64,000 nucleotides of DNA from Minisyncoccota bacterium (lineage in GTDB: Bacteria; Patescibacteriota; Minisyncoccia; Minisyncoccales; CG1-02-41-26). The DNA lies in contig JAQULB010000003.1 in NCBI GenBank assembly GCA_028718785.1, forward strand, positions 8,788 to 72,787. The letters are read 5' to 3'. The position numbers and the translations under genes were made by a program. Shown here piece after piece: positions 12,402 to 63,190 of the stretch (within the stretch, counting starts at the first letter, position 1; every line of letters begins with the position of its first letter). The notes beneath the pieces are model-generated. The model was not told where the DNA came from and made no database searches. It was given only the letters and a program-made list of their open reading frames with translations.

Positions 12402-12409
12402 CTCGTTTT

Positions 12410-14632: not shown

Positions 14633-14651
14633 TGTTTGTGTAAGATATATT

Positions 14652-14682: not shown

Positions 14683-14842
14683 CAGTCGGAGGACAAGCAT
14701 GCCTGCGACTTTTTAATTTAACTTTGGTCAAGCTTTAAGAAAGCTTGGTCGCTCAATGGCTTTTCCTGCTGGACGCTCACGACTTTTTATAAATTGCCAA
14801 AAATAATGTGGGATAAGCATTATATTCCACCAAACGATTGCG

Positions 14843-14920
14843 TGTTACGTTCCACCTTGACAAATCAGGTTTGCCTGCCTTTCTCATTGTAGCAAGCGCC
14901 CTGATTTGTCAAGGTCGGAG
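14843..14920. repeat. Perfect 15-bp inverted repeat CCTTGACAAATCAGG / CCTGATTTGTCAAGG separated by 30 bp (copy of the recurring operator-like motif)
   Basis: 14855-14869 and 14900-14914 are exact reverse complements. The flanks match the motif copies at 10704-10799 and 12410-12450. Confidence 0.65.
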
Positions 14921-44180: not shown

Positions 44181-44185
44181 GTTAG

Positions 44186-44325
44186 AAGTCGTTAATGAAT
44201 GAGTCCGCCTCAGGCGGGCGAGTGAATTTATGAATTCTTACACCTTGTGAAGTAGAAATTTGTTCTACAAATTTCTGTTTCAAATTTTTTACTAAAAATT
44301 TGAAACTACTTCACGGGGTAAATTT
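44186..44325 (+). repeat. Nested-palindromic repeat family, copy 1 (short variant, inner hairpins in swapped order)
   Basis: CGTTAATGAATGAG-[ccgcctcaggcggg]-CGAGTGAATTTATGAATTCTTACACCTTGTGAAGTAG...CTACTTCACGGGGTAA, with compensatory GTGAAGTA/TACTTCAC pairs. Confidence 0.7.
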
Positions 44326-44348
44326 GTTGATTTAATAATACTCTAAAA

Positions 44349-45599
44349 TTACTCTTGAGGTTTTTGTTTTTGGTCTTCTGGTTCGGTTTCTGTCTCAGCA
44401 TCTGCCCCCAACTCTTCAATATCTGCTGTTTGTTCTTTGGGAATTTCGTTAGCGTTTAATTGACTAACGCTACGCACATCAATTTTCCAGCCAGTGAGCT
44501 TGGCGGCCAACCGCACATTTTGTCCTTCTTTGCCAATAGCTAATGAAAGCTGGTCGTCTGGAATAATGGCTTGAGCTTTATTTTTTGGCAAGATTTTAAC
44601 TTCTAAAACCTTGGCTGGTGATAAGGCATTGGCAATAAATTTTTCTGGAAGTTCGTCCCAAATAATAACATCAATTTTTTCTCCGCCAAGTTCGTTGGTA
44701 ACAGCAATAATTCTTGTGCCTCGTTGCCCCACCAAAGAACCGATTGGGTCAATGCCATCTTCCAAGGCCTCAACAGCCACTTTTGACCTAAACCCAGCTT
44801 CTCTGGCAATAGCTCGAATAGCCACTTGATTGGCGCCAATTTCTGGCACTTCAAGCTCAAAAAGCTTGGAGATAAGCTTGGGATAAATTCTGGATAAAAC
44901 AATTTGAGCGCCTTTGGGCGTGTTTTCAGTTTTTAAAACAAAAAGTTTCATTCTTTGTCCGGGCTTGTAATATTCGTTGGGAGCTTGCTCTTTTTTGGGC
45001 AAAATGCCAGAAGTTCGGCCAATGTCAAAAAATACAGCCATTGGCTCAACTCGTTGCACAATACCCGAAACCACCTCTCCTTCTTTGTCTTTAAATTCTT
45101 TAAAGGTTTCTTCTTTTTCAATTTCTTTTATTTTTTGCAAAATAACTTGTTTGGCTGTTTGAGCGGCAATTCGGCCAAAATCATCTTTGGCCTCTAATGG
45201 CAAGCTAACCTCATCGCCCACCTTGGCGTTTTCGTCAATTTCTTTGGCTTCGTTTAACATAATATGCCTTTCGGGATTAAATCTGATTTTTCCACCCTCT
45301 TCATCTTCGAATTCTTCATTTGGGTTAATTTCTCCGGTTTCTCTTTTTTGTTTTATTTCTTCAATTTCTTCTTCTGATAAAATAATGGATTCATCAACTA
45401 CTTCTTTTTCTTGCCAAAAATCAAGACGCCCGGATTTTAAATCCAGCTTGGCTTTTATTTTTTGCTTTTTTTTGCCGTATTCTTTTTTGTAGGCACTGGC
45501 AATGGCCTCGGTGATAACATCAATTATTTTGTTTTCGGGAATACCCCGCTCTTCAGCGATTTCTAAAATAGCTGAGCCCAAATTTTTTAAATCTAACAT
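44349..45599 (-). CDS. nusA: Transcription termination/antitermination factor NusA, with an acidic C-terminal tail
   Basis: [39 protein letters not shown]; S1 and KH-like regions (...[18 protein letters not shown]...). Confidence 0.85.
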
Positions 45600-45600
45600 A

Positions 45601-45790
45601 TTAGTAGTTGTTAATGAGCGAGCAATTTTATTGCGAGTGAGTTTACGAATACTTACACCCTGTGGAGTAATTTTAAATTTTTTGCTAAAAATTTAAAATA
45701 GAAATTTGTCCTGCAAATTTCTACTCTACGGGGTAAAATACCCGTAAAACTCAAACTTCGCTAATCGCTCGTTTTCGTTAACGGTTATTT
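45601..45790 (+). repeat. Nested-palindromic repeat family, copy 2
   Basis: GTTAATGAGCGA-[gcaattttattgc]-GAGTGAGTTTACGAATACTTACACCCTGTGGAGTA...CTACTCTACGGGGTAAAATACCCGTAAAACTCAAACTTCGC...TCGTTTTCGTTAACGG. Confidence 0.7.
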
Positions 45791-45964
45791 TAAGAAAATC
45801 GCCCCGTTCTTAATCAGAACCGAGCTTATCTATACTTTATCAAATAAAATAATCTTTGTCAAATTTGTATGGACTGGGTTCAAAAAAAGCGTATCAATCT
45901 GTGCCGACTCGCCTTGCTGGAGCCTTCGGCGTAGCGCAGGTTGGCCAACTTTGACACACTTTAT

Positions 45965-46405
45965 TTAATAATCTCCAATAGCGTTTTTAGTGTGGCGGAC
46001 AATATAATCACTGAGGGTGTTAAAGATAATTGCCACAACATCAATTTGTTGGTCAATATCTAATGGCAGTTTTTTAAAAGATAGGTAAATTTGGGCCATT
46101 TTTTGCAATTGCTTGGTTTTGTGAAAAGTTATTTCATCCTCTGGTAAAAATTCAGATTTTGCGAAGGGCCTGCCCTGAGCAGTTCGGCGTAGCTCACTGC
46201 GAAGGGTTTTTACTTCCACAAAAATAAGCACTCCTTTCTTTTTTGCAATAATATCCAGCTCGCCCCATTTTGTTTTAAAGTTTCTCTCTAAAATTTGATA
46301 ACCCTCTTTTTTTAAATAATTCGTGGCAATATCCTCTCCAACTTGCCCAATTTTTTGCCTCTGGTTTTGCATATTTTGAATTGGTGGACCTGGGCGGAAT
46401 TTCAC
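45965..46405 (-). CDS. yraN: YraN/UPF0102-family endonuclease-like protein
   Basis: ...WGELDIIAKKKGVLIFVEVKTLR... is the YraN signature. Confidence 0.6.
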   Translation of the reverse strand: MKFRPGPPIQNMQNQRQKIGQVGEDIATNYLKKEGYQILERNFKTKWGELDIIAKKKGVLIFVEVKTLRSELRRTAQGRPFAKSEFLPEDEITFHKTKQLQKMAQIYLSFKKLPLDIDQQIDVVAIIFNTLSDYIVRHTKNAIGDY

Positions 46406-46487
46406 CCTGTTAAATAAAATTTGTGCTCAAATTTTAATTTTAAATTAGCAAATTTAAAATTATTTAACGGGGCGGGCCGCCATCTTT

Positions 46488-46558
46488 TGGACCTAGTGAG
46501 AATCGAACTCACGTTTCCGCAATGCGAATGCGGCGCGCTACCACTGTGCTATAGGCCC
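46488..46558 (-). tRNA. tRNA-Ala (anticodon CGC)
   Basis: Reverse complement GGGCCTATAGCACAGTGGTAGCGCGCCGCATTCGCATTGCGGAAACGTGAGTTCGATTCTCACTAGGTCCA. G3:U70 identity pair, anticodon loop UUCGCAU, T-loop GTTCGATTC. No encoded CCA. One D-stem mismatch. Confidence 0.7.
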
Positions 46559-46564
46559 TGATTA

Positions 46565-46771
46565 TTATTTTTTGTCTTCCATTAATTTTAAGGCAACCAA
46601 TAAGGCAATAAAGGCAATTGAAATCATCCCAGAGGTTAGTATAAGTTTGCCAATAATTGTGTTATCAAGATTCGTTTGAAATCTTGTGCTCCACACATTC
46701 AAGAGCATCATGGCTGTGAAAAATGCGCCGAATGCCACGGCAATTAGAGCAATAATTCTTTTTATTTTCAT
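46565..46771 (-). CDS. Small membrane protein (two TM, 68 aa)
   Basis: MKIKRIIALIAVAFGAFFTAMMLLNVW...ISIAFIALLVALKLM. Confidence 0.4.
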   Translation of the reverse strand: MKIKRIIALIAVAFGAFFTAMMLLNVWSTRFQTNLDNTIIGKLILTSGMISIAFIALLVALKLMEDKK

Positions 46772-46772
46772 G

Positions 46773-49457
<2,685 letters not shown>

Positions 49458-49463
49458 ATTTTG

Positions 49464-49536
49464 TGAGCAGGGAGGGAATCGAACACCTCGTCTTCCATTA
49501 TGTAATAATGGCGCTCTGCTACTGAGCTACCCGCTC
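49464..49536 (-). tRNA. tRNA-Val (anticodon UAC), with a one-nucleotide bulge in the T-stem
   Basis: Reverse complement GAGCGGGTAGCTCAGTAGCAGAGCGCCATTATTACATAATGGAAGACGAGGTGTTCGATTCCCTCCCTGCTCA. The acceptor, D and anticodon stems pair. The T-stem GAGG(T)G/CCCTC needs a bulged T. Confidence 0.55.
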
Positions 49537-49637
49537 AATTTATTAAATTATTTGTTTGTCGGGCCGTGGAGATTTGCACTCCAGCTAAATCTTCCCGAAA
49601 GACTCGTGCTACTGTTAACACTACGGCCCGTTTTACG

Positions 49638-51152
49638 TTAGCTCACCCAGTATTTGGCTTTGGTCATTTGGTCTTGTTTGGTTTCCACTTGTTCAACTTC
49701 GGTTTTGGCTTTTTGGGCTAATTTAGCAAGTTCCTGATCGCTTAAAGCGCCAAGCCGAGTTATTTCTGTTGTCAAAAACTCGGAAGTGTTTTTAGTTGGG
49801 TCGGACAGGACATAGGACAAAACAATAGACAAAATTTGTCCTACTTTTGGCCCGGGTTTTATTTGCAGGGTTTCCATTATGGTTTGGCCATTAACCTTGA
49901 GCATTTTGGGAGAAATTGGATCTTTGGCCACTTTTTCAAGCAAATACTTTAGATGTCTTAACTTATATGGCTCGGCTTTGGGCACGCCCGAGCCAATGCG
50001 GTCGGATTGCCTCACTTGCATTAATTCTTCAATGTTTTCTTGGCCAACATTTCGCAATAATCGCCTTACCGAAGATTCGCCAACTTCATCAACATTGTAA
50101 TAAAACAAATGATATCTAACTAATTTGGTAATTTTTTCCCCTTCTTTTTTGGGAAATTTTAGGTTTTCTAAAATTTTTTTTGTCATTTTAGCCCCAACAA
50201 TTTCATGGTTGTGAAATGAAGCGTTTTCGCCTTCGCCGTTTTTGGTTCTGGGCTTGGCAATATCGTGCAATAAAGAAGCCAAGCGAACTTCAAAAGAGAA
50301 TCCTTTTTTGCAAGCATAATCTAAGCTCAAGAGATTATGTTGGTAAACTTCATAAGTGTGGTGCTTGTTTTGGTCAATTCCAAGCCCCTCTAAAAGTTCG
50401 GGGATTATGTGTTGCAAAAGCTCAAGTTCGCGTAAAAGATCAATTCCCTTTGCGCCATTCTTGCTCATTATAATTTTTGTTAGTTCGTCTTTTATTCTTT
50501 CTTTGGCGATTTCTTTAAGTAAGTTTGCATTTTTTTTAATGGCTTGATAGGTTTTTTCTTCTATTGTCCAGGGTTTTTCATCTAAGCAAACAGCAAACCG
50601 AACAGCTCGCATCATTCGCAAAGCATCTTCGTTGAACCTTTCGTCTGGTTCCCCAACCGCTTTTATTATTTTATTTTCTATATCTTTCTTTCCGCCAAAT
50701 AAATCAATTATTTTAATTCCTAATTCTTGATTCCTAATTCTTAATTCTTGGCTTATTGCCATTGCATTAATGGTAAAGTCCCTTCTGGCTAAATCTTGGT
50801 CAATTGTGTCCACAAATTTTACATTGTCTGGATGGCGTTTGTCAGAGTATTTAGTTTCGGTTCTAAAGGGGGTTATTTCTATTTCTTCTTCGCATTTTTG
50901 ATTTTTAATCCTTGATTTTTGATTTATCACCGTGACCGTGCCAAAAGAATTTTCGTAAAATGTTTTAAAGCCAGCCAAATTAAAAACCTCCTGAATTTCT
51001 TCGGGCTTGGCATTGGTGGTTAAATCCCAATCATTGGGCTGGACATTGCGCAATAAATCCCGCACGCATCCACCAACTATGTAGGCCTCGTATCCTGATT
51101 TTTGAAGGATTTCTAAGGCTTTTTTGATTTTTGGAGGAATATTCATAAACAC
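49638..51152 (-). CDS. cca: CCA-adding tRNA nucleotidyltransferase / poly(A) polymerase family protein with an HD domain
   Basis: N-terminal EAYIVGGCVRDLLRNVQPNDWDLTT (class II NTase GG and D.D motifs). C-terminal HD region ...HHTYEVYQHNLLSL...LLHDIAKP. Confidence 0.8.
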   Translation of the reverse strand: MFMNIPPKIKKALEILQKSGYEAYIVGGCVRDLLRNVQPNDWDLTTNAKPEEIQEVFNLAGFKTFYENSFGTVTVINQKSRIKNQKCEEEIEITPFRTETKYSDKRHPDNVKFVDTIDQDLARRDFTINAMAISQELRIRNQELGIKIIDLFGGKKDIENKIIKAVGEPDERFNEDALRMMRAVRFAVCLDEKPWTIEEKTYQAIKKNANLLKEIAKERIKDELTKIIMSKNGAKGIDLLRELELLQHIIPELLEGLGIDQNKHHTYEVYQHNLLSLDYACKKGFSFEVRLASLLHDIAKPRTKNGEGENASFHNHEIVGAKMTKKILENLKFPKKEGEKITKLVRYHLFYYNVDEVGESSVRRLLRNVGQENIEELMQVRQSDRIGSGVPKAEPYKLRHLKYLLEKVAKDPISPKMLKVNGQTIMETLQIKPGPKVGQILSIVLSYVLSDPTKNTSEFLTTEITRLGALSDQELAKLAQKAKTEVEQVETKQDQMTKAKYWVS

Positions 51153-51360
51153 AAAATTTCTAAACCATAATTTCTAATGTCAAATAAAATGTCAAATGAT
51201 TTAAAATTTTTAATAGCTACCATTTTATTAGAAATTTGTTATTTATTAGTAGTCATTTTTTTATAGTATGGCCTAAAAATGGATTTTTTTCAATTCTGTC
51301 ACAAAAAATAAATCCTTATCTTTGAAGAATAAGGATTTAATAAATAGGTTAACAGAAATA

Positions 51361-51534
51361 TCAAAATGGGCATGGAGCGCCGTTTTTTACAACAAATACG
51401 TACCATTCTTTTTCTTGTTCTGTCACCTTTGGATTATTTTTTTCTAAAAAACTTAAAAACTGCTCAACATCTTCTTTTGAGGAGGAGATGTTTTTTTGAC
51501 GATGTTGTTCCATTTCTTCGTCAGTAGTTTCCAT
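51361..51534 (-). CDS. Small acidic protein (57 aa), absent from the ORF track
   Basis: Reverse strand reads GGAGGTTTATTGATT-ATG, then METTDEEMEQHRQKNISSSKEDVEQFLSFLEKNNPKVTEQEKEWYVFVVKNGAPCPF*. Good RBS. Confidence 0.4.
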   Translation of the reverse strand: METTDEEMEQHRQKNISSSKEDVEQFLSFLEKNNPKVTEQEKEWYVFVVKNGAPCPF

Positions 51535-51705
51535 AATCAATAAACCTCCAATTTTTGTGTTTTTGTGATGATTTTAAGAAATTAGAACCATTATTTTAAT
51601 AAAACACCAAATAATTGTTTTTGTCAATGGCTTTTATTGGTTTATATAGCAAATAGAGTGTATGTGTCTTGTTGTTGGCTGAATTATCTGCTAAATTTAT
51701 TTAAT

Positions 51706-51777
51706 GCTTCCGTGGTGAAATGGATATCACGAATCGCTTCGGACGATTTGTTGGGGGTTCGAATCCCTCCGGAAGCA
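51706..51777 (+). tRNA. tRNA-Arg (anticodon UCG)
   Basis: GCTTCCGTGGTGAAATGGATATCACGAATCGCTTCGGACGATTTGTTGGGGGTTCGAATCCCTCCGGAAGCA. All stems pair; short variable loop. The overlapping track ORF 51637-51861 is spurious. Confidence 0.75.
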
Positions 51778-51867
51778 CAAGAGCGAGGTTGCCTTTTTGG
51801 GTTTATTGTGGTAAAAATTTATTATCTTAATAGTTTGAGGTTTTATTTTTTTATTGTATAATAAGTA

Positions 51868-51950
51868 ATCCGTTAGCGAAGGTGAGGCGGTAGCCAAACT
51901 AAAGCTTACGGAGGACTTACCCCGTGAAGTAATTTTAAATTAACGAATTC
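51868..51950 (-). repeat. Nested-palindromic repeat family, copy 4 (partial, inverted orientation)
   Basis: TAATCCGTTAGCGAAGGTGAGGCGG...AAGCTTACGGAGGACTTACCCCGTGAAGTAATTTTAAATT matches the 3-prime half of the family. Confidence 0.6.
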
Positions 51951-51957
51951 TAACAAA

Positions 51958-52617
51958 ATGAAATCTTCAAAACTTTTTGTTCTTTTTAGTTTATTTTTTA
52001 TTGCAATGTTTTTATTGCCAAAATTTGTAATGGCTGATGGTGAGTACCAGATACAGCTTTTTGAAGACGCAAATCAAAATGGTATTTTTGATCCCAGCAC
52101 CACGAAAAATCCCAGAGAAAATGAAGGAGCTGGAACTCAGAAAGTTTGTTATGACGGGCTTGTGCCTTGTGGAAAAGTTTTATGTAATGGCCTTGATACT
52201 ACAAAAGATAGTCCCACAGAGGGAAAATGCAAAAACAAAATTGGACAGTGTATAAATGCATTTCCAGATCCGCAAAAACCAGTTCAATGCCAGCTTTGCC
52301 ATGGCTTTATAATGGTGGATAAAGCGGTTGATTATATTGTGATAAAACTGGTGCCCTTGTTGGCAGTGTTGATGTTGGTGATTGGGGGGGTAATGTTTTA
52401 TTTTGGCGGGTTTAATCCCGGGCTGTTAAGCCGAGCCAAAACATTGATAAAAGGAGTGGTTGTTGGGCTTGTTCTTATTTACAGCGCCTATATGATTGTG
52501 AATATCTTTTTAATGGTTTTGGGGGCGTCTGAAATAAACTCAATCAAAGATGTTTTTTCCAATGGGGTTTTTTCAATAAAATGTCCGGTTTATATGCCAA
52601 GCGGATTTTTTAAGTGA
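51958..52617 (+). CDS. Secreted Cys-rich protein with a C-terminal pair of TM helices (VirB2/TrbC-pilin-like topology)
   Basis: Signal peptide MKSSKLFVLFSLFFIAMFLLPKFVMA. Cys cluster CYDGLVPCGKVLCNG...CQLCHG. C-terminal LVPLLAVLMLVIGGVMFYFGGFNPGLLSRAKTLIKGVVVGLVLIYSAYMIV is two hydrophobic helices split by a short charged loop. Confidence 0.45.
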   Translation: MKSSKLFVLFSLFFIAMFLLPKFVMADGEYQIQLFEDANQNGIFDPSTTKNPRENEGAGTQKVCYDGLVPCGKVLCNGLDTTKDSPTEGKCKNKIGQCINAFPDPQKPVQCQLCHGFIMVDKAVDYIVIKLVPLLAVLMLVIGGVMFYFGGFNPGLLSRAKTLIKGVVVGLVLIYSAYMIVNIFLMVLGASEINSIKDVFSNGVFSIKCPVYMPSGFFK

Positions 52618-52719
52618 TGCAGTTTATTGTGTGAGAGGGGAATTAATTCCGCGCGACTCATGGGGTTTTATGTCAAAAGCATTTAATTAAAGCTCCACGA
52701 AAGGCACAATATGCCTTTT

Positions 52720-52792
52720 GCCCCCATAGCTCAATTGGTAGAGCAGAACTCTCTTAAAGTTAAGGTTACAGGTTCGAGCCCTGTTGGGGGCA
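52720..52792 (+). tRNA. tRNA-Lys (anticodon CUU)
   Basis: GCCCCCATAGCTCAATTGGTAGAGCAGAACTCTCTTAAAGTTAAGGTTACAGGTTCGAGCCCTGTTGGGGGCA. One G-A mismatch at the top of the anticodon stem. The overlapping track ORF 52687-52884 is spurious. Confidence 0.7.
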
Positions 52793-52831
52793 CAAGGATA
52801 ACTTAAAGACAAAAAGTTAAAAATCAAAAAT

Positions 52832-53110
52832 ATGTTAACAACACAAGAAAAAGAAAAAATTATAGGCGATTTCAAAATAAACAAAACCGATAGCGGTTCA
52901 GCAGATGTGCAAATAGCTATTTTATCTCAAGAAATAACTCGGCTTTTAGAGCATTTAAAAGCAAACCACAACGATAACCATTCCAGAAGAGGGCTTTTGA
53001 AAATGATTATTAAAAGAAAAAAGCTTTTAAAGTATTTAGAGCGAGAGGATAAAAAAAGGTTTAATTCGGTGGTTAAAAAGCTGGGTTTGAAAGAACATGC
53101 AACAAAATAA
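52832..53110 (+). CDS. rpsO: 30S ribosomal protein S15
   Basis: ...DSGSADVQIAILSQEITRLLEHLKANHNDNHSRRGLLKMIIKRKKLLKYL... is the S15 signature. Confidence 0.85.
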   Translation: MLTTQEKEKIIGDFKINKTDSGSADVQIAILSQEITRLLEHLKANHNDNHSRRGLLKMIIKRKKLLKYLEREDKKRFNSVVKKLGLKEHATK

Positions 53111-53609
53111 GCCAAAAGAACAAAGAGTTGAGGTTTTGATAGATGTGCAAAACCTTTATCATTCAGCCCGCAACTTGCACCAATCTCGGGTAAACTTTAA
53201 CGAGATTTTAAAAACAGCTATTGCCGGACGCAAGTTTATTAGAGCTTTTGCTTACGTGGTTAAAACAAAAACAGGCGAAGAGAAACCTTTTTTTGAGGCC
53301 TTAAGCAATTTGGGTATTGAAATGAGAGTTAAGGATTTGCAAGAATTTTACGATGGCCAAAAAAAAGCGGATTGGGATGTGGGTATTGTTGTTGACGCCA
53401 TTAGAACAGCTCCGGGGGTGGATGTGGTGGTTTTGTGCTCTGGAGACGGGGATTTTATTCCCTTGGTGGAGTATTTAAAAAATCAAGGCAAAAGAGTGGA
53501 GGTTGTGGCCTTTGGAAAAACAACTTCTTCTGGACTTAGAGAAACAGCTGATGAATTGATTGATATTGGCCAAGACCCAAGAAAATATTTAATAAAAATG
53601 AAACAATAA
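53097..53609 (+). CDS. NYN-domain (LabA/PIN-like) protein inserted between rpsO and pnp
   Basis: VEVLIDVQNLYHSAR...VVLCSGDGDFIPLVEYLKNQGKRVEVVAFG is the NYN/DUF88 pattern. Its start overlaps the rpsO stop. Confidence 0.7.
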   Translation: MQQNKPKEQRVEVLIDVQNLYHSARNLHQSRVNFNEILKTAIAGRKFIRAFAYVVKTKTGEEKPFFEALSNLGIEMRVKDLQEFYDGQKKADWDVGIVVDAIRTAPGVDVVVLCSGDGDFIPLVEYLKNQGKRVEVVAFGKTTSSGLRETADELIDIGQDPRKYLIKMKQ

Positions 53610-53714
53610 AAAAATAATCGGATTATGGGTTTGGGGTTATGAATTTGGAATTGTGGCTTAACTACGATTCCCTTTTCATAATTCTTAACTCACAAACCAT
53701 AGTTCAAAAATTTT

Positions 53715-55910: not shown

Positions 55911-55966
55911 AAATCCCCCCTTTTTTCTTTTTAGGCATCGTTTAAACAGGCATTTCAAAAAGGCAA

Positions 55967-58861
55967 ATGCCAGATAAAAATAATAAAAAATCAAATGGCG
56001 AGAACCTTGCGGTTTTAAAACAAGAAGGCAAGGGTTTTTCTAATAGGTTAAGCCAAGAAAGAGCTTATCAAATTTTATCTCAAGGAGTTATTTTTACAAT
56101 GGAAGATGATTTGAAAGAGGCCTTAAAGCGCCAAAAAATGAAAGCTGATTTAATTCCGGGCCGGATAAAAAAAGAAAATAAAACGCAAGAAATTTTTGCG
56201 GACAATCCTTTTTTTGATCCTTTTCCAAAACTAGAAGAAACTAAAGAGAAATTGCCCAAAAAAATAAATCCCGAAGCTTTAACAGATCTAAATAATTTTG
56301 AGAAAAAAGAAATAAAATCACCCCCTAAACCAGAAATTTCTGAAAAAAATGTAGCAAAAGATCAACTGCCTCAAGAAAAAATTGTTGCAATTTCTCAATC
56401 GCCAAAAGATTTTCCGTTGCAAGAGAAAGGAGAAAAAGAAAATATCACAAAAGAGAAAGCGCTTCCTGAAAAATTAGAAAAAAAGCCCGAAGAATCTTAT
56501 AAAGAGGCGCAAAAACCAGCTATATTAAAAGAAATAATTGGAGAAAATATTGAAAAAATCAAACATAATTTGGGTCAAAAAATCGTTGATATTTCATCAA
56601 AATTGAAAGATATCAACAATCAAGAAGAACCTCTTTTACAAAGAAGAAAAGCAATTTTGGAGAAAATAACGCTTCAAAAAAAGGCCTTAGAAAATTTTTT
56701 TCAAATAACCGAATCTGCCAAACTCGAGCAATTTGAATTAGAAAAAAAAGAACAAGAAGCAATAGACAGCCAAATAAAACACAATATTGAAGAGCAAAGG
56801 TGGCAAGCAGAAGAAAAACTTAAAAAAGCTCAGGACTTGCAATGGGCCCAAGAAGAAGAGCTTGAAAAAGCGCAAATGGCTTTGTCTAAAGTTGATAACG
56901 ATTTAAAGAGTTTTTTGAAGCAAAAAACTCAGCTTGGAAAAGAAAAAATAGAGATTCAAAAATTTTTGGACAATATTGGTTTTTTAATTCAAAAAGAAGA
57001 ATTTTTAAATAAAAATCAAAACTTCTTAAACCAAAAGGCCAAACTTGAAATGTTTTACAAGCAAGCGCTTTTGCAAAAAAACAAACAAGAGCAAGATCTT
57101 TTTCTTATAACGCAAGAAGAGCAAAAAATTGAACAAGACCTAAGGGTTTTTGAAGAAAAAGTTCAAAAAGCAACTGACTATCAAGAAAGACGGAAACTAG
57201 AGCAGGAAAGAAGGGAATTGGCGCAAAAAAGGCAATTTCAAGAAAAAAAGCGATGGGAGCTTGAAAAAAATAAGGAAATAACAAATAACAATTTCAACCT
57301 TGCAAAAGAAAAACTTTTTAAAGCAAAACAAGAAGAAGAAAATTTTAATCAAAAAATAGCTGAAATAGAAGCCAGGATTGATAAAGGAATTTTTTTGCCA
57401 GAAGCAGAAAAATATTTAAAATCAAAACTTCAAACCAAAGCGTTAGAGGGGGACCATTCTCAAGAGCTATCAAAAGAAAGCCAAGAAAATCAAGTAGTTG
57501 AAAAAGAAGAAAAGGAGAGAGTAAATTCTCCCCTAACAGTTCCACAGCCAGTAGCTATTGACAGGCCAGCTCCCGCAAAGGAAGTTTTTTTAAACAAAGA
57601 GGAGCAGGAAACCGTTGAAAAAATTCGCTTAATGGCAAAAGAAAAAGAACAAGAACTAATCCAAAAGCAAGTTGTTCAAAAACAGGTGCTTGAAGGAGAA
57701 AAAGAAGCGCATGAGGAGATTAAGCAAAGGCAAGAAGAAGAAAATCGTATCAAGGCAATTGCAAAATTAAAACAGATAGCCGAACAAGAACAAAAAAAGG
57801 CCTTTGAGGGGAGATTAAGGGGTCCGCTTTTAAAGGAAGAGATATTGAAAAAGCTAACAAAAATTTCTGCGCAGGAAGAAGGACAAAGAAAAGAGTTTTT
57901 ATCAAGGATTAATAAAAAAATAAACTCCCTACCCAAAAGAAAGCAAAAGGGATTTGAAGAAGCGGTTGTTTTTCATCCAATGATAAAAAAAACCTCTTTA
58001 TTTGAAAAAATTATTATTCGTTTTTTAGTTATTTTTTTAATTATTGCTGTTGGCTGTGGAATTTACCTTGGAATTTTGGAGTTAAATAAAAAGAGAAATA
58101 ATATTCCACCATTAAACAATAATATAGAAACGCCATTAAATCCAACAAGCGACTGGCCGGATCTTTATCCTGAGGGTTCAACAACAGCTTCAAGCACAGC
58201 TCCATCTGTAACAAGCACAACAACACCCCAAGCCACCACTACTCCTTCAACAAACCCAGAGCAAATTCAACCGACCACTACTCCTGCTATTGCCATTCCT
58301 CCAGTTTCTTTAATTTTAGTTTCAAAGAATAATATTTTTTATTATCAGGGCGACCCTGTTGCTTTGATATCATCAATAGGAGAAATCATCAGCAATAAAA
58401 TAACATACAGCGCCTTTGAACAAGTATCTGTTTTAAACGATAATGAAGGCGTTTTCTTCACAGCTCCTCAGTTTTTTCAGATATTGGGAACTTCTTTTCC
58501 TCAAGAAATTTTTAATAATAGCGATGACAATGAAATATCAACAACATTGATATATTCTTCAAAATACGGCAATCGCTTAGGATTTGTTTTAGCAACTAAT
58601 AGCACCAGCTCTCTGTTTACTGCTTTTAAGAATTGGGAAAGTCAAGCTGAGTTAAATACAGCTGATATTTTTAATTTAATGGGCAAGAAATCTCCAGCTA
58701 TAAGTAAAATATTCAAGAATACAATATATAAATCAGTTCCCATAAGATATCAAACCTTTGCTTTAACTGATCTTGGAATTTGTTATGCTGTTTATAAAGA
58801 TTATTTTATTTGGACAAGCTCTTTGGAGCAAATGCAAAAGATAGTGGACAAATTGCCTTAG
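55967..58861 (+). CDS. Giant Lys/Glu/Gln-rich coiled-coil protein with a single TM segment and a C-terminal globular domain
   Basis: 964 aa. About 650 aa of charged coiled coil, then TM IIIRFLVIFLIIAVGCGIYLGIL, a Thr/Pro-rich linker and a C-terminal region of about 200 aa. Confidence 0.6.
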   Translation: MPDKNNKKSNGENLAVLKQEGKGFSNRLSQERAYQILSQGVIFTMEDDLKEALKRQKMKADLIPGRIKKENKTQEIFADNPFFDPFPKLEETKEKLPKKINPEALTDLNNFEKKEIKSPPKPEISEKNVAKDQLPQEKIVAISQSPKDFPLQEKGEKENITKEKALPEKLEKKPEESYKEAQKPAILKEIIGENIEKIKHNLGQKIVDISSKLKDINNQEEPLLQRRKAILEKITLQKKALENFFQITESAKLEQFELEKKEQEAIDSQIKHNIEEQRWQAEEKLKKAQDLQWAQEEELEKAQMALSKVDNDLKSFLKQKTQLGKEKIEIQKFLDNIGFLIQKEEFLNKNQNFLNQKAKLEMFYKQALLQKNKQEQDLFLITQEEQKIEQDLRVFEEKVQKATDYQERRKLEQERRELAQKRQFQEKKRWELEKNKEITNNNFNLAKEKLFKAKQEEENFNQKIAEIEARIDKGIFLPEAEKYLKSKLQTKALEGDHSQELSKESQENQVVEKEEKERVNSPLTVPQPVAIDRPAPAKEVFLNKEEQETVEKIRLMAKEKEQELIQKQVVQKQVLEGEKEAHEEIKQRQEEENRIKAIAKLKQIAEQEQKKAFEGRLRGPLLKEEILKKLTKISAQEEGQRKEFLSRINKKINSLPKRKQKGFEEAVVFHPMIKKTSLFEKIIIRFLVIFLIIAVGCGIYLGILELNKKRNNIPPLNNNIETPLNPTSDWPDLYPEGSTTASSTAPSVTSTTTPQATTTPSTNPEQIQPTTTPAIAIPPVSLILVSKNNIFYYQGDPVALISSIGEIISNKITYSAFEQVSVLNDNEGVFFTAPQFFQILGTSFPQEIFNNSDDNEISTTLIYSSKYGNRLGFVLATNSTSSLFTAFKNWESQAELNTADIFNLMGKKSPAISKIFKNTIYKSVPIRYQTFALTDLGICYAVYKDYFIWTSSLEQMQKIVDKLP

Positions 58862-58905
58862 AAATAATATAATGTTAATCTGTTAGTTGAATACTTAAAA
58901 AATAT

Positions 58906-59271
58906 ATGGTTAAACAGAATAAAAAATTTATAGAAGAGCAAAAAGAAATTCTTTTGCAAGAAAAGAATAAAATTGAGGATCGACTTGGTTCTTTTGCTAA
59001 GGAGTCCCAAGAGCATAAAGGCGAGTGGACTTCTAATATGCCAGATTTTGATAAAAGTTCCAGTTTAGAGGAAGAAGCAGATGAGGTTGAAGAATTTGGA
59101 ATGAGGTTGGCATTAGAGCATTCAATGGAAGAGCAATTAAAAGCCGTTGATTTAGCTTTGGAAAAAATTAAAAAAGGCACTTATGGCATTTGCGATAAAT
59201 GCGAGAAAGAAATTCCCCAAGGCCGATTAAAGGCCTATCCTCAGGCCAGTTATTGCCAGAGATGTCAATGA
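58906..59271 (+). CDS. DksA/TraR-family C4 zinc-finger protein
   Basis: C-terminal CDKCEKEIPQGRLKAYPQASYCQRCQ preceded by a coiled coil. Confidence 0.7.
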   Translation: MVKQNKKFIEEQKEILLQEKNKIEDRLGSFAKESQEHKGEWTSNMPDFDKSSSLEEEADEVEEFGMRLALEHSMEEQLKAVDLALEKIKKGTYGICDKCEKEIPQGRLKAYPQASYCQRCQ

Positions 59272-59414
59272 GCATCTAAATTTTCAAGGCGATGAGCCGC
59301 AGAAAATTTAGCAATGCGAATTGATCCCGTTAGATAAAATTTGTAATCAGATTTTATCTAACGGGGCCAACAAGATAAATTTTAAATTTTATTTATCAGA
59401 GTTTATATATAAAT

Positions 59415-60356
59415 ATGCCCACAAAGTCGCCAACAATTATTATTGGCCACAAAAATCCCGACACGGACTCAGTCGCTTCTGTTTTAGCTTATTCAAATTT
59501 AAAAGCTAAGTTGGGTGAAAGCGTTGAACCAGCTGTTGCTGGCCCTCTTAACAATGAAACAAAATTCGTGTTGTCTTATTTAAACATTGAACCGCCAAAG
59601 CTTATTGAAAATTTAGAGCAAAAACAAGTTATCTTGCTTGATCATGGCGATCTTTCCCAAATAGCCACAGGAATTGATGCTGCTGAAATAATGGAAATTA
59701 TTGACCACCATAAAATTGGTGATATTCAAACCGAATCCCCAATTTTATATAGAGCAGAACCAGTGGGTAGTACCTGCACTATTTTAGCTAAATTGTTTAA
59801 GGAGGAGAGGCAAAGCATAGAAAAAAAGATAGCAGGACTTCTTTTAGCTGGAATTATCTCTGACACCTTATTCCTTAGCTCTCCAGCTACAACGGAATTA
59901 GACAAGAAAACCCTTCAAGAGCTTGCTGAAATTGCTGAAATTGAACCAAAAGAATTTGCCCAGAAAATGTTTGAGGCAAAATCAGATATTAGCTCTTTAA
60001 GTGTTAGAGACATTATTGGCGGTGATTACAAGGAATTTGAATGTCATGGCATTAAGTTTGGCGTTGGAGTTTTTGAAACCCTGTGCCCAGAAAAAGTAAG
60101 AGAGTTTGATAGCGAAATTTTTAAAGAATTATTGGAACTTAAAAAGGAAAACGCCATGGGGCTTATATTTTTTTTGCTTGTTGATATTCTTAAACAGGAA
60201 TCTTTTATGTACCTTGTAACAGATGAGGAAGCAGATTTATGTAAACAAAGTTTTTCTGGAGAAATAAAAAACAAGGTAATGTTTTTGCCAGGCGTGGTTT
60301 CAAGGAAAAAGCAAGTAATTCCTGTTTTAACCAACGCTTTAGCAAGAAGGTCTTAG
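59415..60356 (+). CDS. ppaC: DHH/DHHA2 phosphoesterase: family II (Mn-dependent) inorganic pyrophosphatase-like
   Basis: N-terminal IIIGHKNPDTDSVASVLAY. DHH motif MEIIDHHKIGD. LLLAGIISDTLFLSSPATTELDKKTLQELAEIA resembles PpaC [21 protein letters not shown]...ELAEIA. Size 313 aa. Confidence 0.65.
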   Translation: MPTKSPTIIIGHKNPDTDSVASVLAYSNLKAKLGESVEPAVAGPLNNETKFVLSYLNIEPPKLIENLEQKQVILLDHGDLSQIATGIDAAEIMEIIDHHKIGDIQTESPILYRAEPVGSTCTILAKLFKEERQSIEKKIAGLLLAGIISDTLFLSSPATTELDKKTLQELAEIAEIEPKEFAQKMFEAKSDISSLSVRDIIGGDYKEFECHGIKFGVGVFETLCPEKVREFDSEIFKELLELKKENAMGLIFFLLVDILKQESFMYLVTDEEADLCKQSFSGEIKNKVMFLPGVVSRKKQVIPVLTNALARRS

Positions 60357-60365
60357 AATTGAATT

Positions 60366-61150
60366 AAAGTTACACCGGTCTTACCGGTGTAACTTTGAGA
60401 ATTATGATTTTACGACAAGAACCATTTACTAACGAAGAAATTTACCATATTATTAATCGGGGAATTGACGACAATTTAATTTTTAAAGATACAAACGATT
60501 ATTACAGGGGGATTTTTTCTATTTATGAGTTTAACACTATTGATTTGATTAAGATCAGAGAACGTCGTCGGCAAAGAGAGGTTTTTAAAAAAGCTTGCAC
60601 TGGTAAGACCGGTGAAATTATTATTGAACCAGATAAAAGAAATAAGTTAGTAGAAGTATTGGCTTTTTGCTTGATGCCCAACCATTTTCACTTATTATTG
60701 AGGCAACTGAAAGATAATGGAGTAACTGATTTTATGAGAAAGGTTGGCACGGGATACAGCGGTTATTTTAATAGGAAATATGAAAGAAAGGGTCATGTTT
60801 TTCAAAATAAATTTATTGATGTACGAATTAAGGGTGACGACCAATTAAAAAATATTTTTGTTTATGTTCATACAAATCCGATAGCCATTATTGAGTCAAG
60901 CTGGAAAGAAGGAGGCATTGAAAACCTATCAAAAGCTAAAAATTTTGTTGAAAATTATAAGTGGTCAAGTTATCCAGATTATTTGGGGAATGGGAATTTT
61001 CCATCAGTGACGCAGAGAGACTTTATTTTAGAAGTTATGGGAGGTAGGGATGGCTGTAAAAATTTTGTTGATAATTGGGTGGAGCATAAAGCTGAAATTT
61101 TAGCGTAAAACCTACATACACTGGTAAGACCGGTGTAAACCGGTGTAAAT
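60366..61150 (+). mobile_element. IS200/IS605-like (or RAYT-like) element: Y1 HUH transposase gene flanked on both sides by the same ~19-bp hairpin
   Basis: Left AAAGTTACACCGGTCTTACCGGTGTAACTTT (60366-60396). Right ACACTGGTAAGACCGGTGT (61118-61136) followed by the tandem AAACCGGTGTAAAT. Confidence 0.6.
60404..61108 (+). CDS. IS200-like Y1 (HUH) tyrosine transposase
   Basis: CLMPNHFHLLLRQ (HUH motif) and GYSGYFNRKYERKGHVFQNKFIDVRI (catalytic Tyr region). ATG at 60404 preferred over the track TTG at 60395. Confidence 0.7.
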   Translation: MILRQEPFTNEEIYHIINRGIDDNLIFKDTNDYYRGIFSIYEFNTIDLIKIRERRRQREVFKKACTGKTGEIIIEPDKRNKLVEVLAFCLMPNHFHLLLRQLKDNGVTDFMRKVGTGYSGYFNRKYERKGHVFQNKFIDVRIKGDDQLKNIFVYVHTNPIAIIESSWKEGGIENLSKAKNFVENYKWSSYPDYLGNGNFPSVTQRDFILEVMGGRDGCKNFVDNWVEHKAEILA

Positions 61151-61153
61151 AAT

Positions 61154-62410
61154 ATGAAAATAGGGATTAAAAAACAATCAAAGACAAAAGTGGAAATTGA
61201 TTTTGAATTAAGCTGGGAGGAGTTTGAGGTATATTATCAAAAAGCTATCAATAAAATAAGCCAGGGAGTTTCTTTGGACGGTTTTAGGCAAGGCAAAGCG
61301 CCAAAAGATATTGTGGAACAAAAAGTGGGCGATTTTAAAATTTTAGAACAAGCCGGGGAAATTGCCTTGCAAGAAAACTATTTAAAGATTGTTAAAGAAA
61401 ATAATTTAGAAGTTATTGGTCCCCCTCAAATTGAAATTAAAAAATTAGCTAAAGATAATGAGTTTCAGGCGAAAATAAAATTAAGTATTTTGTCAGAGGT
61501 TGATTTGCCAGATTACCAAAAAATCGTTTCCAAAATTGAAAAGAAAAAATCAAAAGTTGAGGACCAAGAGATTGAAGAAACAATTAAGTGGATTCAAAAA
61601 TCTAGAGCCAATATGCAGGAAGTAGAAAAGGGGGCTGTTAATGGTAATTGGGTGGAAATTGAATATCAATCTCCGCAAATAGAAAATAACAAACTTCTTG
61701 AAGATAGTTTTATTTTAGGAGAGGCAAAATTAATTCCTGGTTTTGAACAAGCCATTGAGGGAATGAAAAAGGGGGAGGAAAAGGAGTTTTCCGCTGTATT
61801 TCCCAAAGATTATTACCACAAGGAGCTTTCAGAGAAAAAAGCAGATTTTAAATTAAAAATTAAAGCGGTAAAAACAATGGATTTGCCAGAGCTAAACGAC
61901 GATTTTGCTAAAACGCTTGGTAATTTTGAAAGCTTTGAAAAGTTAAAAGAAAATATAAAAGAGGGCTTGGGGCTTGAAAAAGAAAATCAAAGTAAAGAAA
62001 TTTGGAAAGACGATGTTTTAAAAGCAATTTCTGATGAAATAAAAGTGGAAATGCCTGAAATTTTAGTGTTGTCAGAAAAAGAAAGGATTATGCATCACCT
62101 TGAACACGAGGCCGAGCATTTAAAAATAAGTTTTGAAGATTATTTAAAAAGAATTCAAAAAACAAAAGAGCAAGTGGAAAACGAGGCAATGGAAAGGGCT
62201 ATTCAAGGGGTAAAAAATTATTTAATTTTAAAAGAAATTGGAAAGAAAGAATCTATAGAGGTTTTAGAAAAAGATATAGAGGAAGAAATTAACAAGATAT
62301 TAGCAAGTTATCCACAGACCAATTTCAAAGAAATTGATAAAGAAAGCGTAAAAAGTGTATTATATAATAATAAGGTGTTTTCAGCTTTGGAAAAATTTTG
62401 TGATAAGTAA
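61154..62410 (+). CDS. tig: Trigger factor
   Basis: 418 aa. N-terminal ribosome-binding region, central FKBP-like region ([49 protein letters not shown]) and C-terminal arm. Confidence 0.85.
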
Positions 62411-62414
62411 ATTT

Positions 62415-62996
62415 ATGCCGTTAATTCCAACAATAATTGAAAAATCTTCAAGGGGTGAAAGAGTCACCGACATATTTTCACGATTACTTGAAGAACGGAT
62501 TATATTTTTAGCTGGTCCAATTGATGATTATGTGGCCAATTTGATAATTGCGGAAATTTTGCTTTTAGCTTCAAAAGATTCTCAAAAAGATATTAAGTTA
62601 TATATTAATTCGCCAGGGGGTTCGGTAACAGCTGGTTTGGCAATTTATGACACAATGCAGTATATTTCTTGCGATGTTTCCACAATCTGTGTGGGCATGG
62701 CCGCTAGTATGGCTGCTGTGTTGTTGGCTGCTGGAGCTAAAGGAAAAAGATTTGTTTTGCCAAACTCTGAAATCTTGTTGCACCAGCCAATGGGAGGCAT
62801 TACAGGCCAGGCCTCGGAAATTGAAATTGGGGCAAAACAAATTTTAAAAATAAAAGCCAAGCTAAATCAAATTTTAGCCAACCATACAGGAAAGCCATTA
62901 AAAAATATAGAGAGCGACACTGACAGAGATTTTTATTTGTCAGCTGAAGAAGCAAAAAAATACGGAGTAGTTGACGAAGTTATTAACGGGAAGTAA
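62415..62996 (+). CDS. clpP: ATP-dependent Clp protease proteolytic subunit
   Basis: [26 protein letters not shown]...[16 protein letters not shown]...LLHQPMGG gives the Ser/His/Asp triad context. Start at the ATG at 62415. Confidence 0.9.
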
Positions 62997-63000
62997 ATAA

Positions 63001-63190
63001 TCCGTTATTGAAAGCGAGCCGAAAGGCGAAGCTTGAAATTTAAGGAGGACTTACCCCGTGGAGTATAAATTTGCTCTGCAAATTTATATTTTAAATTTTT
63101 TACTAAAAATTTAAAATTACTCCACAGGGTGTAAGAACTCGTAAATTCACTCGCGACTAATCGTCGCTCATTCACTAACGATTTCTAACA
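63001..63190 (-). repeat. Nested-palindromic repeat family, copy 5 (full-length, inverted orientation)
   Basis: Reverse complement of the family: TCCGTTATTGAAAGCGAGCCG...GGCGAAGCTTGAAATTTAAGGAGGACTTACCCCGTGGAGTA...TACTCCACAGGGTGTAAGAACTCGTAAATTCACTCGCGACTAATCGTCGCTCATTCACTAACGATTTC. Confidence 0.75.

Follow-up and report, generated by a model that had tools for sequence, protein, structure and literature searches.

The repeats in the window (the whole 64,000-nucleotide stretch of Minisyncoccota contig JAQULB010000003.1 that was analyzed) are probably non-autonomous, ORF-less derivatives of a tiny hairpin-flanked GIY-YIG nuclease cassette, with an insertion mechanism that we infer below. Comparison of the copies with their relatives establishes that they belong to one family and form a deletion series, that their orientation and TAA-n-ATG position are constant, that an empty site has a single TAA, and that the arms are conserved between species. 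The first-pass annotation had suggested a MITE-like or REP-like element, or a family of structured RNAs, under selection for structure. The MITE-like assignment stands, based on ORF-bearing relatives with the same ends, intermediates of deletion, and orthologous sites that lack the element; selection on RNA structure is not implied by the compensatory changes.

The family was verified as five copies, all found within a few bases of the coordinates first reported, and one core-only copy. All lie between 44.1 and 63.2 kb, and profile searches found no copy in the first 44 kb of the window. Measured copy lengths are 86 to 215 bp rather than the ~230 bp originally given. Repeat searches of the window matched 45635–45761 to 46809–46935 with 87% identity, and 46767–46937 to 63024–63194 with 84% complementarity across 171 nt. 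In motif counts, TTACCCCGTGGAGTA with at most three mismatches had 8 matches vs 0.61 expected, and a conserved-arm 30-mer had 4 matches vs 0.00 expected. A full copy comprises three adjoining hairpins (L arm, core, and R arm), and none of the window copies carries an intact nuclease ORF. The copies and their flanks are as follows.

62997..63185, + strand: copy 5, a complete ORF-less element recognized by sequence, repeats, and tail and arm profile matches; L hairpin 62997–63052, core 63053–63130 (outer stem ACCCCGTGGAGTA/TACTCCACAGGGT enclosing hairpin B, then A), R hairpin 63131–63185; 5′ TAA 62994–62996 is the stop codon of the upstream gene, clpP (ClpP Pfam match); 3′ TAA 63186–63188, C, ATG 63190.
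46776..46990, − strand: copy 3, a complete ORF-less element recognized by sequence, ORFs, and profile matches; additional 26-nt hairpin in the L arm; 5′ TAA 46991–46993 is the tgt stop codon (TGT Pfam match); 3′ TAA 46773–46775, C, ATG 46769–46771 of a 68-aa ORF.
45604..45789, − strand: copy 2, a complete ORF-less element in the nusA leader, with a sigma-70-like promoter upstream (45862–45834); flanked by TAA 45790–45792 and by TAA 45601–45603, T, ATG 45597–45599.
44185..44325, − strand: copy 1, 5′-truncated, with core (hairpins A, then B) and R hairpin and without L hairpin, starting ~30 nt past the nusA stop; 3′ TAA 44182–44184, C, ATG 44178–44180 of a ChlI/ComM-like gene.
51865..51950, + strand: copy 4, an internally deleted element whose 5′ part (L hairpin, 5′ outer-stem arm, half of hairpin A) runs straight into the final 14 nt of the R arm (TTAACGAATTC); flanked by TAA 51862–51864 and by TAA 51951–51953, CAAA, ATG 51958.
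46391..46487, − strand: core-only sixth copy recognized by sequence and inverted-repeat pairs, without L or R arms; two AT-rich hairpins inside outer stem CCCCGTTAAATAA/TTATTTAACAGGG, bracketed by the 7-nt direct repeat AGGTCCA; neighbors are tRNA-Ala (46488–46558) and a UPF0102 gene (ATG 46370–46372).

The outer stem with its two AT-rich hairpins is present as first described, as are the paired substitutions and swapped inner-hairpin order of copy 1 and the variable, self-complementary hairpin (ccgcc/ggcgg, gcaat/attgc, cccag/ctggg, and gcgac/gtcgc). The segments formerly read as a terminal inverted repeat pair locally, within the separate L and R hairpins, and not with each other. In a model that pairs the 5′ arm with the 3′ tail over a long range, compensatory changes were nearly absent and broken cells numerous, and three local hairpins were therefore preferred. 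The ends are inverted repeats: the element begins with GTAATCCGTTA, and the reverse complement of its 3′ end is GAAATCGTTA, GTAATCGTTA, or GTAGTCGTTA. Covariation was analyzed across 23 distinct copies, drawn from the window and from genomes related to it, in which 96.2% of cells were pairing. Changes on both sides occurred in 20 of 41 pairs, compared with 8.4 ± 1.7 in shuffles (0/500 reached 20), and the covariation score was 0.236, vs at most 0.061 when partners were slid. The proposal that compensatory changes preserve the hairpins is thus statistically confirmed, with double substitutions far above both the shuffled and the slid controls. The covariation lies within the three local hairpins, not in arm-to-tail pairing.

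These compensatory changes do not imply selection on RNA, because G-U intermediates are few, both strands are about equally stable, and some changes occurred at the DNA level. Pair changes are almost all from one Watson-Crick pair to another. Mean fold energy is −82.6 for the sense strand and −84.7 for the antisense strand, and G-U pairs number 42 in sense folds vs 79 in antisense folds (single mismatches, 3 vs 16); a few transition mismatches favor the antisense strand, and the bias is small. Hairpin order and loop orientation flip among copies, including between orthologous copies, and such flips are a DNA-level event. The elements are located outside coding and RNA genes, and a promoter sought within the R arm was not found. 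Only tRNAs reached the Rfam gathering threshold in the window, and permissive Rfam scans of the copies and of a full-length relative (L004) gave nothing credible or near threshold; the element is therefore no known RNA, ribozyme, or intron. A group I or group II intron with a homing endonuclease was likewise rejected, with no intron model matching L004 or the window copies.

Relatives of the window copies reveal what the core once held. Intact 89-residue GIY-YIG ORFs occur inside otherwise identical elements (L004, L006, L039/L052, L031, and L045), with a match to Pfam PF01541 (E = 4e-17) covering residues 3–72 of 89 aa. In full-length relatives, a TAA is followed by the L hairpin, the 5′ arm of a 13-bp stem, the nuclease ORF, and the R hairpin; a second TAA and a single base then lead to the ATG of the next gene. 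The final codons of the ORF (YxTGCKNS*) double as the 3′ stem arm and the beginning of the R hairpin, and translation across the 3′ stem arm of every short copy still gives ..Y(S/F)TGCKNS*. The orthologue of copy 5 at the clpP locus (L002) retains the 3′ two thirds of the ORF. Two intermediates (L007 and L010) contain hairpin A and AAGATTTGAGG...CCTCAAATCTT, an ORF-internal stem that becomes hairpin B. These intermediates show that the two AT-rich hairpins of the window copies are the remnant of nuclease gene deletion. Given the ORF-bearing relatives and the deletion intermediates, the window copies are therefore best read as ORF-less, MITE-like derivatives. Core content varies at orthologous loci, being a full ORF, a remnant, or an unrelated hairpin. 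The stem variant of the core-only copy also surrounds intact GIY-YIG ORFs in other Patescibacteria.

The whole cassette measures 0.34–0.45 kb, and its sole protein is a single-domain GIY-YIG nuclease of 84–89 residues. This domain was the only ORF in the parent element, with no recognized transposase, and NCBIfam has no specific model for the nuclease. An Azospirillum protein is 36% identical to it (pairwise E = 5e-13); the pairwise score of 45.8 bits exceeds the 26.7 bits obtained against UPF0213 structures in a PDB search. The Azospirillum gene sits between sufB and sufC, with canonical Ssn NTS/SRM hairpins on both sides. Homologs across Patescibacteria are co-oriented within operons and have the same enclosing stem and an upstream hairpin.

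In total, ~55 non-redundant relatives were found in Candidatus Gribaldobacteria genomes and groundwater metagenomes, with at least 17 copies in the metagenome-assembled genome (MAG) JAUSHZ01. The genomes nearest to the window are this MAG and one Ca. Gribaldobacteria MAG. Matches to the search pattern in an Agrobacterium genome and in two metagenome sequences (L038 and L044) were discarded as chance, the remainder of the element being absent. Viral contigs gave 0 matches to the element, and a viral origin is unsupported.

Position relative to genes is nearly invariant. A same-strand ORF follows every copy (55/55 non-redundant), and 53 of 55 end in TAA, 1–5 nt, and ATG, the spacing being exactly 1 nt in 43. 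This co-orientation and spacing had been overlooked in the first-pass annotation, as had the origin of the core from a nuclease ORF. TAA also adjoins the 5′ end in 20 of 22 type-I copies, nine times as the stop codon of a co-directional upstream ORF. Empty sites are consistent with duplication of this TAA: one reads TAC TAA T ATG (L008), vs TAT TAA [element] TAA T ATG in its filled orthologue (L040), and at rplK (L032 vs L047) TAA C ATG is kept in the empty and filled states. Although TAA is present at both ends in most copies, it is frequent in AT-rich DNA, and the empty-site pairs are two, both between species. The site orthologous to copy 1 is also empty in MAG JAUSHZ01 (L013 2740–2868). 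Duplication of a 2-nt AT or of ATG at the ends was inconsistent across copies and was rejected.

We weighed several other explanations. The L and R hairpins might be a host cis-acting leader, that is, a 5′ UTR or intercistronic RNA acting in processing, stability, or termination-reinitiation, with the GIY-YIG gene a recurrent homing-type parasite that decays in the apical stem. The sense orientation of all copies and their ending at a start codon fit such a leader, and Shine-Dalgarno sequences are absent from the genes of this genomic region. Several copies begin at a TGnTAnAAT-like −10 box, and transcription would therefore start at the first bases of the element. The variation in core content at orthologous loci would be expected from cycles of gain and loss. 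Arms and tails are 93–94% identical between species, vs 58–70% at third codon positions of nusA and clpP; at the orthologue of copy 2 (L013), 64 of 69 tail positions are identical and nusA third positions are 70% identical. Conservation of the arms equals that of first and second codon positions, and conservation this strong at orthologous loci is at least as compatible with a host function as with a selfish one. However, the sense strand shows neither a G-U bias nor greater fold stability, no Rfam family matched, and the R hairpin would bury the 20 nt preceding the ATG. Many copies, with copies 1 and 4 among them, lack the L arm or have one that is truncated or of an unrelated type, and without mobility the presence of the hairpins before dozens of unrelated genes is unexplained. 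We regard a host leader as unlikely, though worth serious consideration. A related suggestion, that the elements are antisense small RNAs transcribed away from the gene start, would account for a conserved sense C·A mismatch that is a G·U pair on the antisense strand and for the slightly more stable antisense folds. That bias comes mostly from one inherited position, however, antisense promoters are not outstanding, Rfam again gave no match, and the ORF-bearing relatives make an antisense gene implausible; this appears extremely improbable.

Mobility of another kind is conceivable. The short copies could be REPIN-like and moved in trans by a Y1 (HUH, IS200/RAYT-like) transposase, with the GIY-YIG gene a passenger. 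HUH transposases act on single-stranded hairpins, and the window contains a Y1_Tnp gene at 60404–61108 (Pfam E = 3e-10) that is flanked by perfect hairpins TTACACCGGT/ACCGGTGTAA and ends just before the tig ATG; TTACACC/GGTGTAA is common to this hairpin and the base of the element's outer stem. That similarity spans only about 7 nt, however, and the Y1_Tnp hairpin otherwise differs from the element and was found only at that locus in the window. IS200/IS605-type insertion produces no target duplication, and the GIY-YIG ORF is built into the element itself, with the stem formed by its C-terminus, an arrangement seen in many genomes and throughout Patescibacteria. A Y1-driven origin is thus very unlikely. 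Another view is that the repeats do not move and are REP-like or terminator-like palindromes serving to end the upstream transcript or to protect its 3′ end, which we judge highly improbable. Many copies do start at the stop codon of the upstream gene, and some hairpins scored as terminator-like in a scan, but the constant distance is to the downstream ATG and not to the upstream stop, as copy 1 illustrates. In addition, many copies come after a promoter rather than a gene, the R hairpin has no following T-run, and copies occur within ribosomal-protein operons, in which termination would be detrimental.

The closest known system to the cassette is Ssn/NTS (Neisseria SsnA). Ssn is a ~90-residue single-domain GIY-YIG ssDNA nuclease whose gene is flanked by hairpins on both sides, and its NTS/SRM repeats are also scattered over the genome, mainly at extragenic positions (Chenal et al. 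2025, PMC11893778). Nucleases of this type were characterized only in 2025, and their link to the repeats was called IS-like, evidence of movement being absent (PMC11893778). Both systems combine a ~90-residue GIY-YIG protein, hairpins on both sides, and dispersed extragenic repeats; in Gribaldobacteria the hairpins on either side of the ORF are L and R, and other Patescibacteria have an upstream hairpin and the enclosing stem. The SRM motif HGTCWYN(0-2)YYVSBRHN(0-5)WNVSBRGN(0-2)RNCYNB matched neither the elements (0 in 12.4 kb) nor the window (0), and had 4 matches around the Azospirillum gene. Unlike Ssn, the cassette has hairpin modules of 55–60 nt and an extra stem that encloses the ORF and overlaps its C-terminus, and its copies are strictly gene-start-adjacent and co-oriented, most being ORF-less derivatives of the whole cassette and not solo hairpins.

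As in MITEs, the copies are short, non-coding, and multicopy, with inverted-repeat ends, a short A/T-rich flanking direct repeat, and internal deletion from a coding relative, and they would often be co-transcribed with neighbors. Known MITEs include the Correia elements of Neisseria and Tourist-type elements, which have a 3-bp TAA/TTA duplication. Unlike MITE parents, the coding relative has only a GIY-YIG nuclease and no DDE, HUH, serine, or tyrosine transposase, and element orientation and start-codon distance are fixed. Resemblance to REP/REPIN-RAYT systems lies in intergenic palindromes linked to a single small nuclease-type gene, which the repeats also flank, in hairpins maintained by compensatory changes, and in the apparent domestication of some copies, but the enzyme class differs, there is no GTAG-type REP head, and REPINs are not bound to start codons. 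T4-like phages carry the free-standing homing endonuclease genes seg and mob. GIY-YIG-encoding insertions that are not intron-like occur in rRNA genes of the candidate phyla radiation (CPR) (PMC11270868). The cassette shares with both a small nuclease gene placed precisely between or in essential genes and co-transcribed with them, and full, degenerate, and empty states at one locus across related genomes. Classical homing enzymes carry a DNA-binding domain and recognize a single target site, whereas the cassette has the catalytic domain only and occupies dozens of loci per genome. Integron attC sites were rejected on reading the sequence, as the ends are not RYYYAAC...GTTRRRY in the right order; the neighbors are housekeeping operons.

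For the favored GIY-YIG cassette, sequence context suggests that it would enter at the TAA directly before a start codon, often the stop codon of the preceding gene; both flanking genes would therefore remain intact and the cassette would be co-transcribed. A 3-nt TAA target alone leaves the absence of copies from many other intergenic TAAs unexplained. By analogy with Ssn/NTS, the hairpins may be the ssDNA substrate of the nuclease, and ORF-less copies would therefore still be targets in trans. To our knowledge, a hydrolytic GIY-YIG nuclease is unable to join strands alone; insertion is therefore assumed to involve host repair or a copying step. In copies that become fixed, the R arm would turn into the leader of an essential gene and be kept by purifying selection. 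We tentatively entertain a broader possibility: that this 0.34–0.45 kb cassette with its 84–89-residue nuclease represents a new class of self-propagating insertion element, possibly the smallest autonomous bacterial mobile element, which targets and duplicates the pre-start TAA and gives rise to MITE-like copies, now employed by Patescibacteria as stop-to-start spacers and essential-gene leaders.

Loci in the full, decaying, and empty state occur here alongside an apparent TAA duplication, an invariant orientation, and a set distance of 1–5 nt to the start codon, and two questions therefore become directly testable: whether a repeat family can proliferate through the action of a lone GIY-YIG domain, and how elements in ribosomal-protein and other essential operons are tolerated, or exploited, by ultra-small CPR genomes. 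The defined hairpin/nuclease pairs are also candidates for new ssDNA-cutting specificities.

All five copies of the repeat reported in the first-pass annotation are present in the window. Repeat finding in the window aligned copies 2 and 3 with 87% identity over 127 nt and copies 3 and 5 with 84% complementarity over 171 nt, and two conserved motifs had 8 and 4 occurrences, where 0.61 and 0.00 were expected. A sixth copy consists of the core only.

Element copies and a second nuclease-plus-hairpin unit in the window
44185–44325, minus strand, copy 1
45604–45789, minus strand, copy 2
46391–46487, minus strand, core-only sixth copy, adjoining tRNA-Ala
46776–46990, minus strand, copy 3
51865–51950, plus strand, copy 4
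62997–63185, plus strand, copy 5
60404–61108, gene for a Y1 (IS200-like/RAYT-like) transposase of 234 aa, in a unit at 60359–61153 with perfect hairpins on both sides

Profiles built from all relatives located four L arms and four R arms (the hairpins on either side of the core), all within 44.1–63.2 kb of the window, and the same searches found neither type of arm before 44 kb. The first two thirds of the window, which hold zero element copies, may be an island or a foreign segment, judging from composition and gene starts. G+C content rises to 0.44–0.46 at 12–18 kb, and GGAGG-type sites are found at many of the genes before 43 kb; after ~43 kb, genes have A/T-rich leaders without a Shine-Dalgarno sequence, and TAA is often near ATG. 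At ~51000–52000, GC skew changes from negative to positive and gene orientation from minus to plus; tRNA genes lie to either side, and the orientation of the element copies matches that of the genes on either side of this switch. Two repeats in the window are unrelated to the element: a 33-nt repeat (ATTATAGCAAGCACCCTAAATTGTCAAGGTCGG; three copies, 1.7–2.5 kb apart, 10710–14918) and a 25-nt unit (TAATATAGTTATTTGACAACAGTAA; three copies, near tandem, 4757–4837). The core-only copy lies between 7-nt direct repeats AGGTCCA (region 46381–46494), one of which is the 3' acceptor end of tRNA-Ala, without an encoded CCA, and the other of which has a CCA after it (AGGTCCACCA). The insertion seems to have split the original tRNA-Ala 3' end.

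Read toward the next gene, as all copies were, the element comprises, in order, TAA, an L hairpin of ~56 nt (GTAATCCGTTATTGAAAGCGAGCC..GGCGAAGCTTGAAATTTACGGAGGACTT), a core in which the stem ACCCCGTGGAGTA/TACTCCACAGGGT encloses two AT-rich hairpins (A and B), an R hairpin of ~55 nt (GTAAGAACTCGTAAATTCACTCG, a variable GC hairpin, and CTCATTCATTAACGATTTC), a second TAA, 1–5 nt, and ATG. The variable GC hairpin, outer stem, and two AT-rich hairpins described in the first-pass annotation are borne out by the window sequence, as are the paired substitutions and swapped hairpin order of copy 1. RNAalifold, run on 23 distinct copies from which the core interior had been cut out, predicted three local hairpins, which were paired in 96.2% of cells. 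Changes on both sides were seen at 20 of the 41 pairs, compared with 8.4 ± 1.7 in shuffles (0 of 500 as high), and the covariation score was 0.236, compared with at most 0.061 with slid partners, so the proposed compensatory changes that preserve the hairpins are confirmed. Pairing of the 5' arm with the 3' tail was rejected, since it gave helices with almost no double changes and many broken cells where the L arm varies. The "terminal inverted repeat" proposed earlier is thus not one pairing; its L and R segments are two homologous modules, each of which folds separately. A GC-rich palindrome of ~60 nt (CCCGAGGGCAGACCTCCCCATGCTGGGAGCCCA..GGAGGTCTGCCCTCAGG) is nested in hairpin A at five related loci from different samples (L005, 2240–2330; L009; L018; L029; and L037), and may be a second small mobile palindrome.

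The most striking regularity, absent from the first-pass annotation, is the placement of the element immediately before a start codon. A profile search over all collected sequences yielded 55 non-redundant copies, each followed by a same-strand ORF, and the 3' end read TAA, 1–5 nt, and ATG in 53 of them. The spacer was C (36 copies), T (5), G (2), CAT (6), GAT (2), CATTT (1), or CAC (1), and the two exceptions each differed by a point change. Because the search pattern stopped 35 nt short of the ATG, the regularity is not due to ascertainment. Downstream genes included nusA, dnaK, ftsA, fpg, and those for ribosomal proteins S7, L11, and L18; nusA, clpP, tgt, and tig were confirmed with Pfam, and the ribosomal proteins, dnaK, ftsA, and fpg were identified from their N-termini. 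The 5' end directly followed a TAA in 20 of 22 type-I copies. In nine of the 20, this TAA ended an upstream ORF that runs in the same direction (in the window, it is the clpP stop codon at copy 5 and the tgt stop codon at copy 3), and the remaining ones mostly overlapped a TAnAAT-like −10 box. At three related loci (L017, L018, and L046), a run of ~9 tandem TAACTAA heptamers fills the spacer before the TTG start of an fpg-like gene, and in another genome (L043) the element occupies the spot of this run.

Empty and filled versions of the same junction were compared. Between two orthologous genes, the empty locus L008 reads ..TTC TAC TAA T ATG GAA.. and the filled locus L040 reads ..TAT TAT TAA [272-bp element] TAA T ATG GAA.. 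The filled site thus equals the empty site plus the element and one TAA; the lone spacer base belongs to the host. Similarly, TAA C ATG GCA AAG is kept at rplK in both the empty (L032) and the filled (L047) site, and the MAG JAUSHZ01 has the site of copy 1 without the element. Taken together, the sites carry what appears to be the mark of an insertion that duplicated a 3-bp TAA, as read from few pairs, all between species. Some "empty" spacers resemble collapsed elements (AATAAGAACTTACTAAC in L032 and ATAAATAGAAATCCCGGTTAAC.. in L040).

Scanning of species-representative genomes detected the element in two Patescibacteria MAGs, JAUSHZ01 (ten pattern matches on several contigs) and a Candidatus Gribaldobacteria MAG from Crystal Geyser (two pattern matches). 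A metagenome scan added 40 loci from groundwater-type samples, and a scan of viral contigs gave no match. At several loci (L004, L006, L039/L052, L031, and L045), an intact 89-codon ORF lies inside the outer stem. It encodes a GIY-YIG catalytic domain (PF01541, E = 4e-17) that, as read from the sequence, has every motif residue (tyrosines, arginine, histidine, and glutamate). The ORF is built into the hairpins: it starts in the 3' half of hairpin A, its internal segments AAGATTTGAGG (encoding LRFEE) and CCTCAAATCTT (encoding RLKS) pair in a stem that persists as hairpin B, and its last codons, TAC TTC ACA GGG TGT AAG AAC TCG TAA, are the outer-stem 3' arm and the first R-hairpin bases. Intermediate states were also found. 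L002, orthologous to the copy 5 locus (clpP upstream, the same membrane-protein gene downstream, flanks 81% identical), is missing just the first third of the ORF; in L007 and L010, hairpin A is left together with ~90 nt of ORF remnants. The 3' arm of every short copy, including those in the window, translates as ..Y(S/F)TGCKNS*. Evolution thus proceeded from the ORF-bearing cassette to the short element.

Whether the hairpins act as RNA or DNA was considered from their folds. Sense and antisense RNA folds were equally stable (mean −82.6 and −84.7 kcal/mol, respectively), G-U pairs were fewer in sense than in antisense folds (42 versus 79), and one-sided G-U states were rare compared with full double changes. 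Single transition mismatches were pairable in 3 sense and 16 antisense cases, counts that come mostly from one inherited C·A of the outer stem. Inversions of hairpin order and of loops are DNA events. An RNA role may exist, but nothing in the fold, G-U, covariation, and inversion data speaks positively for RNA structure on the sense strand; such a pattern would be expected of hairpins recognized as DNA or of palindromes that templated repair maintains. We infer the nuclease substrate, the insertion chemistry, and any RNA-level role.

Arms and core differ in conservation. At two orthologous loci, arms and tails were 93–94% identical (64/69, 67/72, and 66/70), compared with 70% (nusA) and 57.5% (clpP) at third codon positions and 91–95% at first and second codon positions of these genes. 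Gene conversion from other copies was ruled out as the reason for this identity, since the nusA-locus copies have private variants common to both species. The arms are under purifying selection, conserved like coding sequence, and the core is not. Hairpin order differs between orthologous copies (B,A in copy 2 and A,B in L013, the JAUSHZ01 locus), loop orientation is inverted between copies (AGTA/TACT and CAGAG/CTCTG), and the core elsewhere is, by locus, a full ORF, debris, a nested GC-rich palindrome, or an unrelated hairpin.

Members of the nuclease family occur widely among Patescibacteria (279 clusters at E ≤ 1e-5), with 67–90% identity among the 120 matches listed. In seven further contexts, the nuclease gene lies in an operon, co-oriented with its neighbors and 2–55 nt upstream of the next gene; these include a T4SS-like cluster and positions before rpsS, before a CBS gene, between yidD and yidC, before an NYN gene, and after a Mur ligase. 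The pair ACCCTGTTAAATAA/TTATTTAACAGGGT, or a version with one base changed, surrounds the gene in most of these contexts, with a hairpin upstream that comes after a TAA. Minimal versions (L065 and L070) have TAA on both flanks, and in L070 the nuclease stop codon is 2 nt from the next ATG. Four loci (L078–L081) share an identical 88-aa GIY-YIG gene and downstream flank but carry one or the other of two different upstream hairpins, with compensating differences between their arms; the variation may be a polymorphism among strains, of use for probing the role of the hairpin. The Y1 transposase gene is a separate, second nuclease-plus-hairpin unit within the same 20 kb as the element copies. It is preceded by TTACACCGGT ctt ACCGGTGTAA, is followed by ACACTGGTaagACCGGTGT and a second ACCGGTGTAA, and ends 5 nt before the tig ATG; TTACACC/GGTGTAA is common to its hairpin and the base of the element's outer stem.

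Among characterized systems, Ssn comes nearest: its 94-aa GIY-YIG nucleases, each of a single domain, cleave single-stranded DNA beside NTS/SRM hairpins, which flank the ssn gene and occur as hundreds of dispersed copies; its authors termed the architecture IS-like, and movement was not demonstrated there (PMC11893778). An Azospirillum plasmid gene between sufB and sufC, with four canonical NTS-like motifs on its flanks, encodes a protein that shares 36% identity with the cassette nuclease. The published SRM motif had zero matches in the elements described here, which were therefore treated as Ssn-like but with a different hairpin, outside the SRM set. GIY-YIG ORFs have also been described within non-intron insertions in CPR rRNA genes (PMC11270868), and these may be the same cassette. 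We rate the system as an Ssn-like nuclease with MITE/REPIN-like repeats. The repeat family is real and of greater interest than a plain MITE. Its relationship, position, covariation, and conservation are established by the data above. The repeats are best explained as ORF-less relics of a hairpin-flanked GIY-YIG cassette, set with single-base regularity between a TAA and the start codon that follows.
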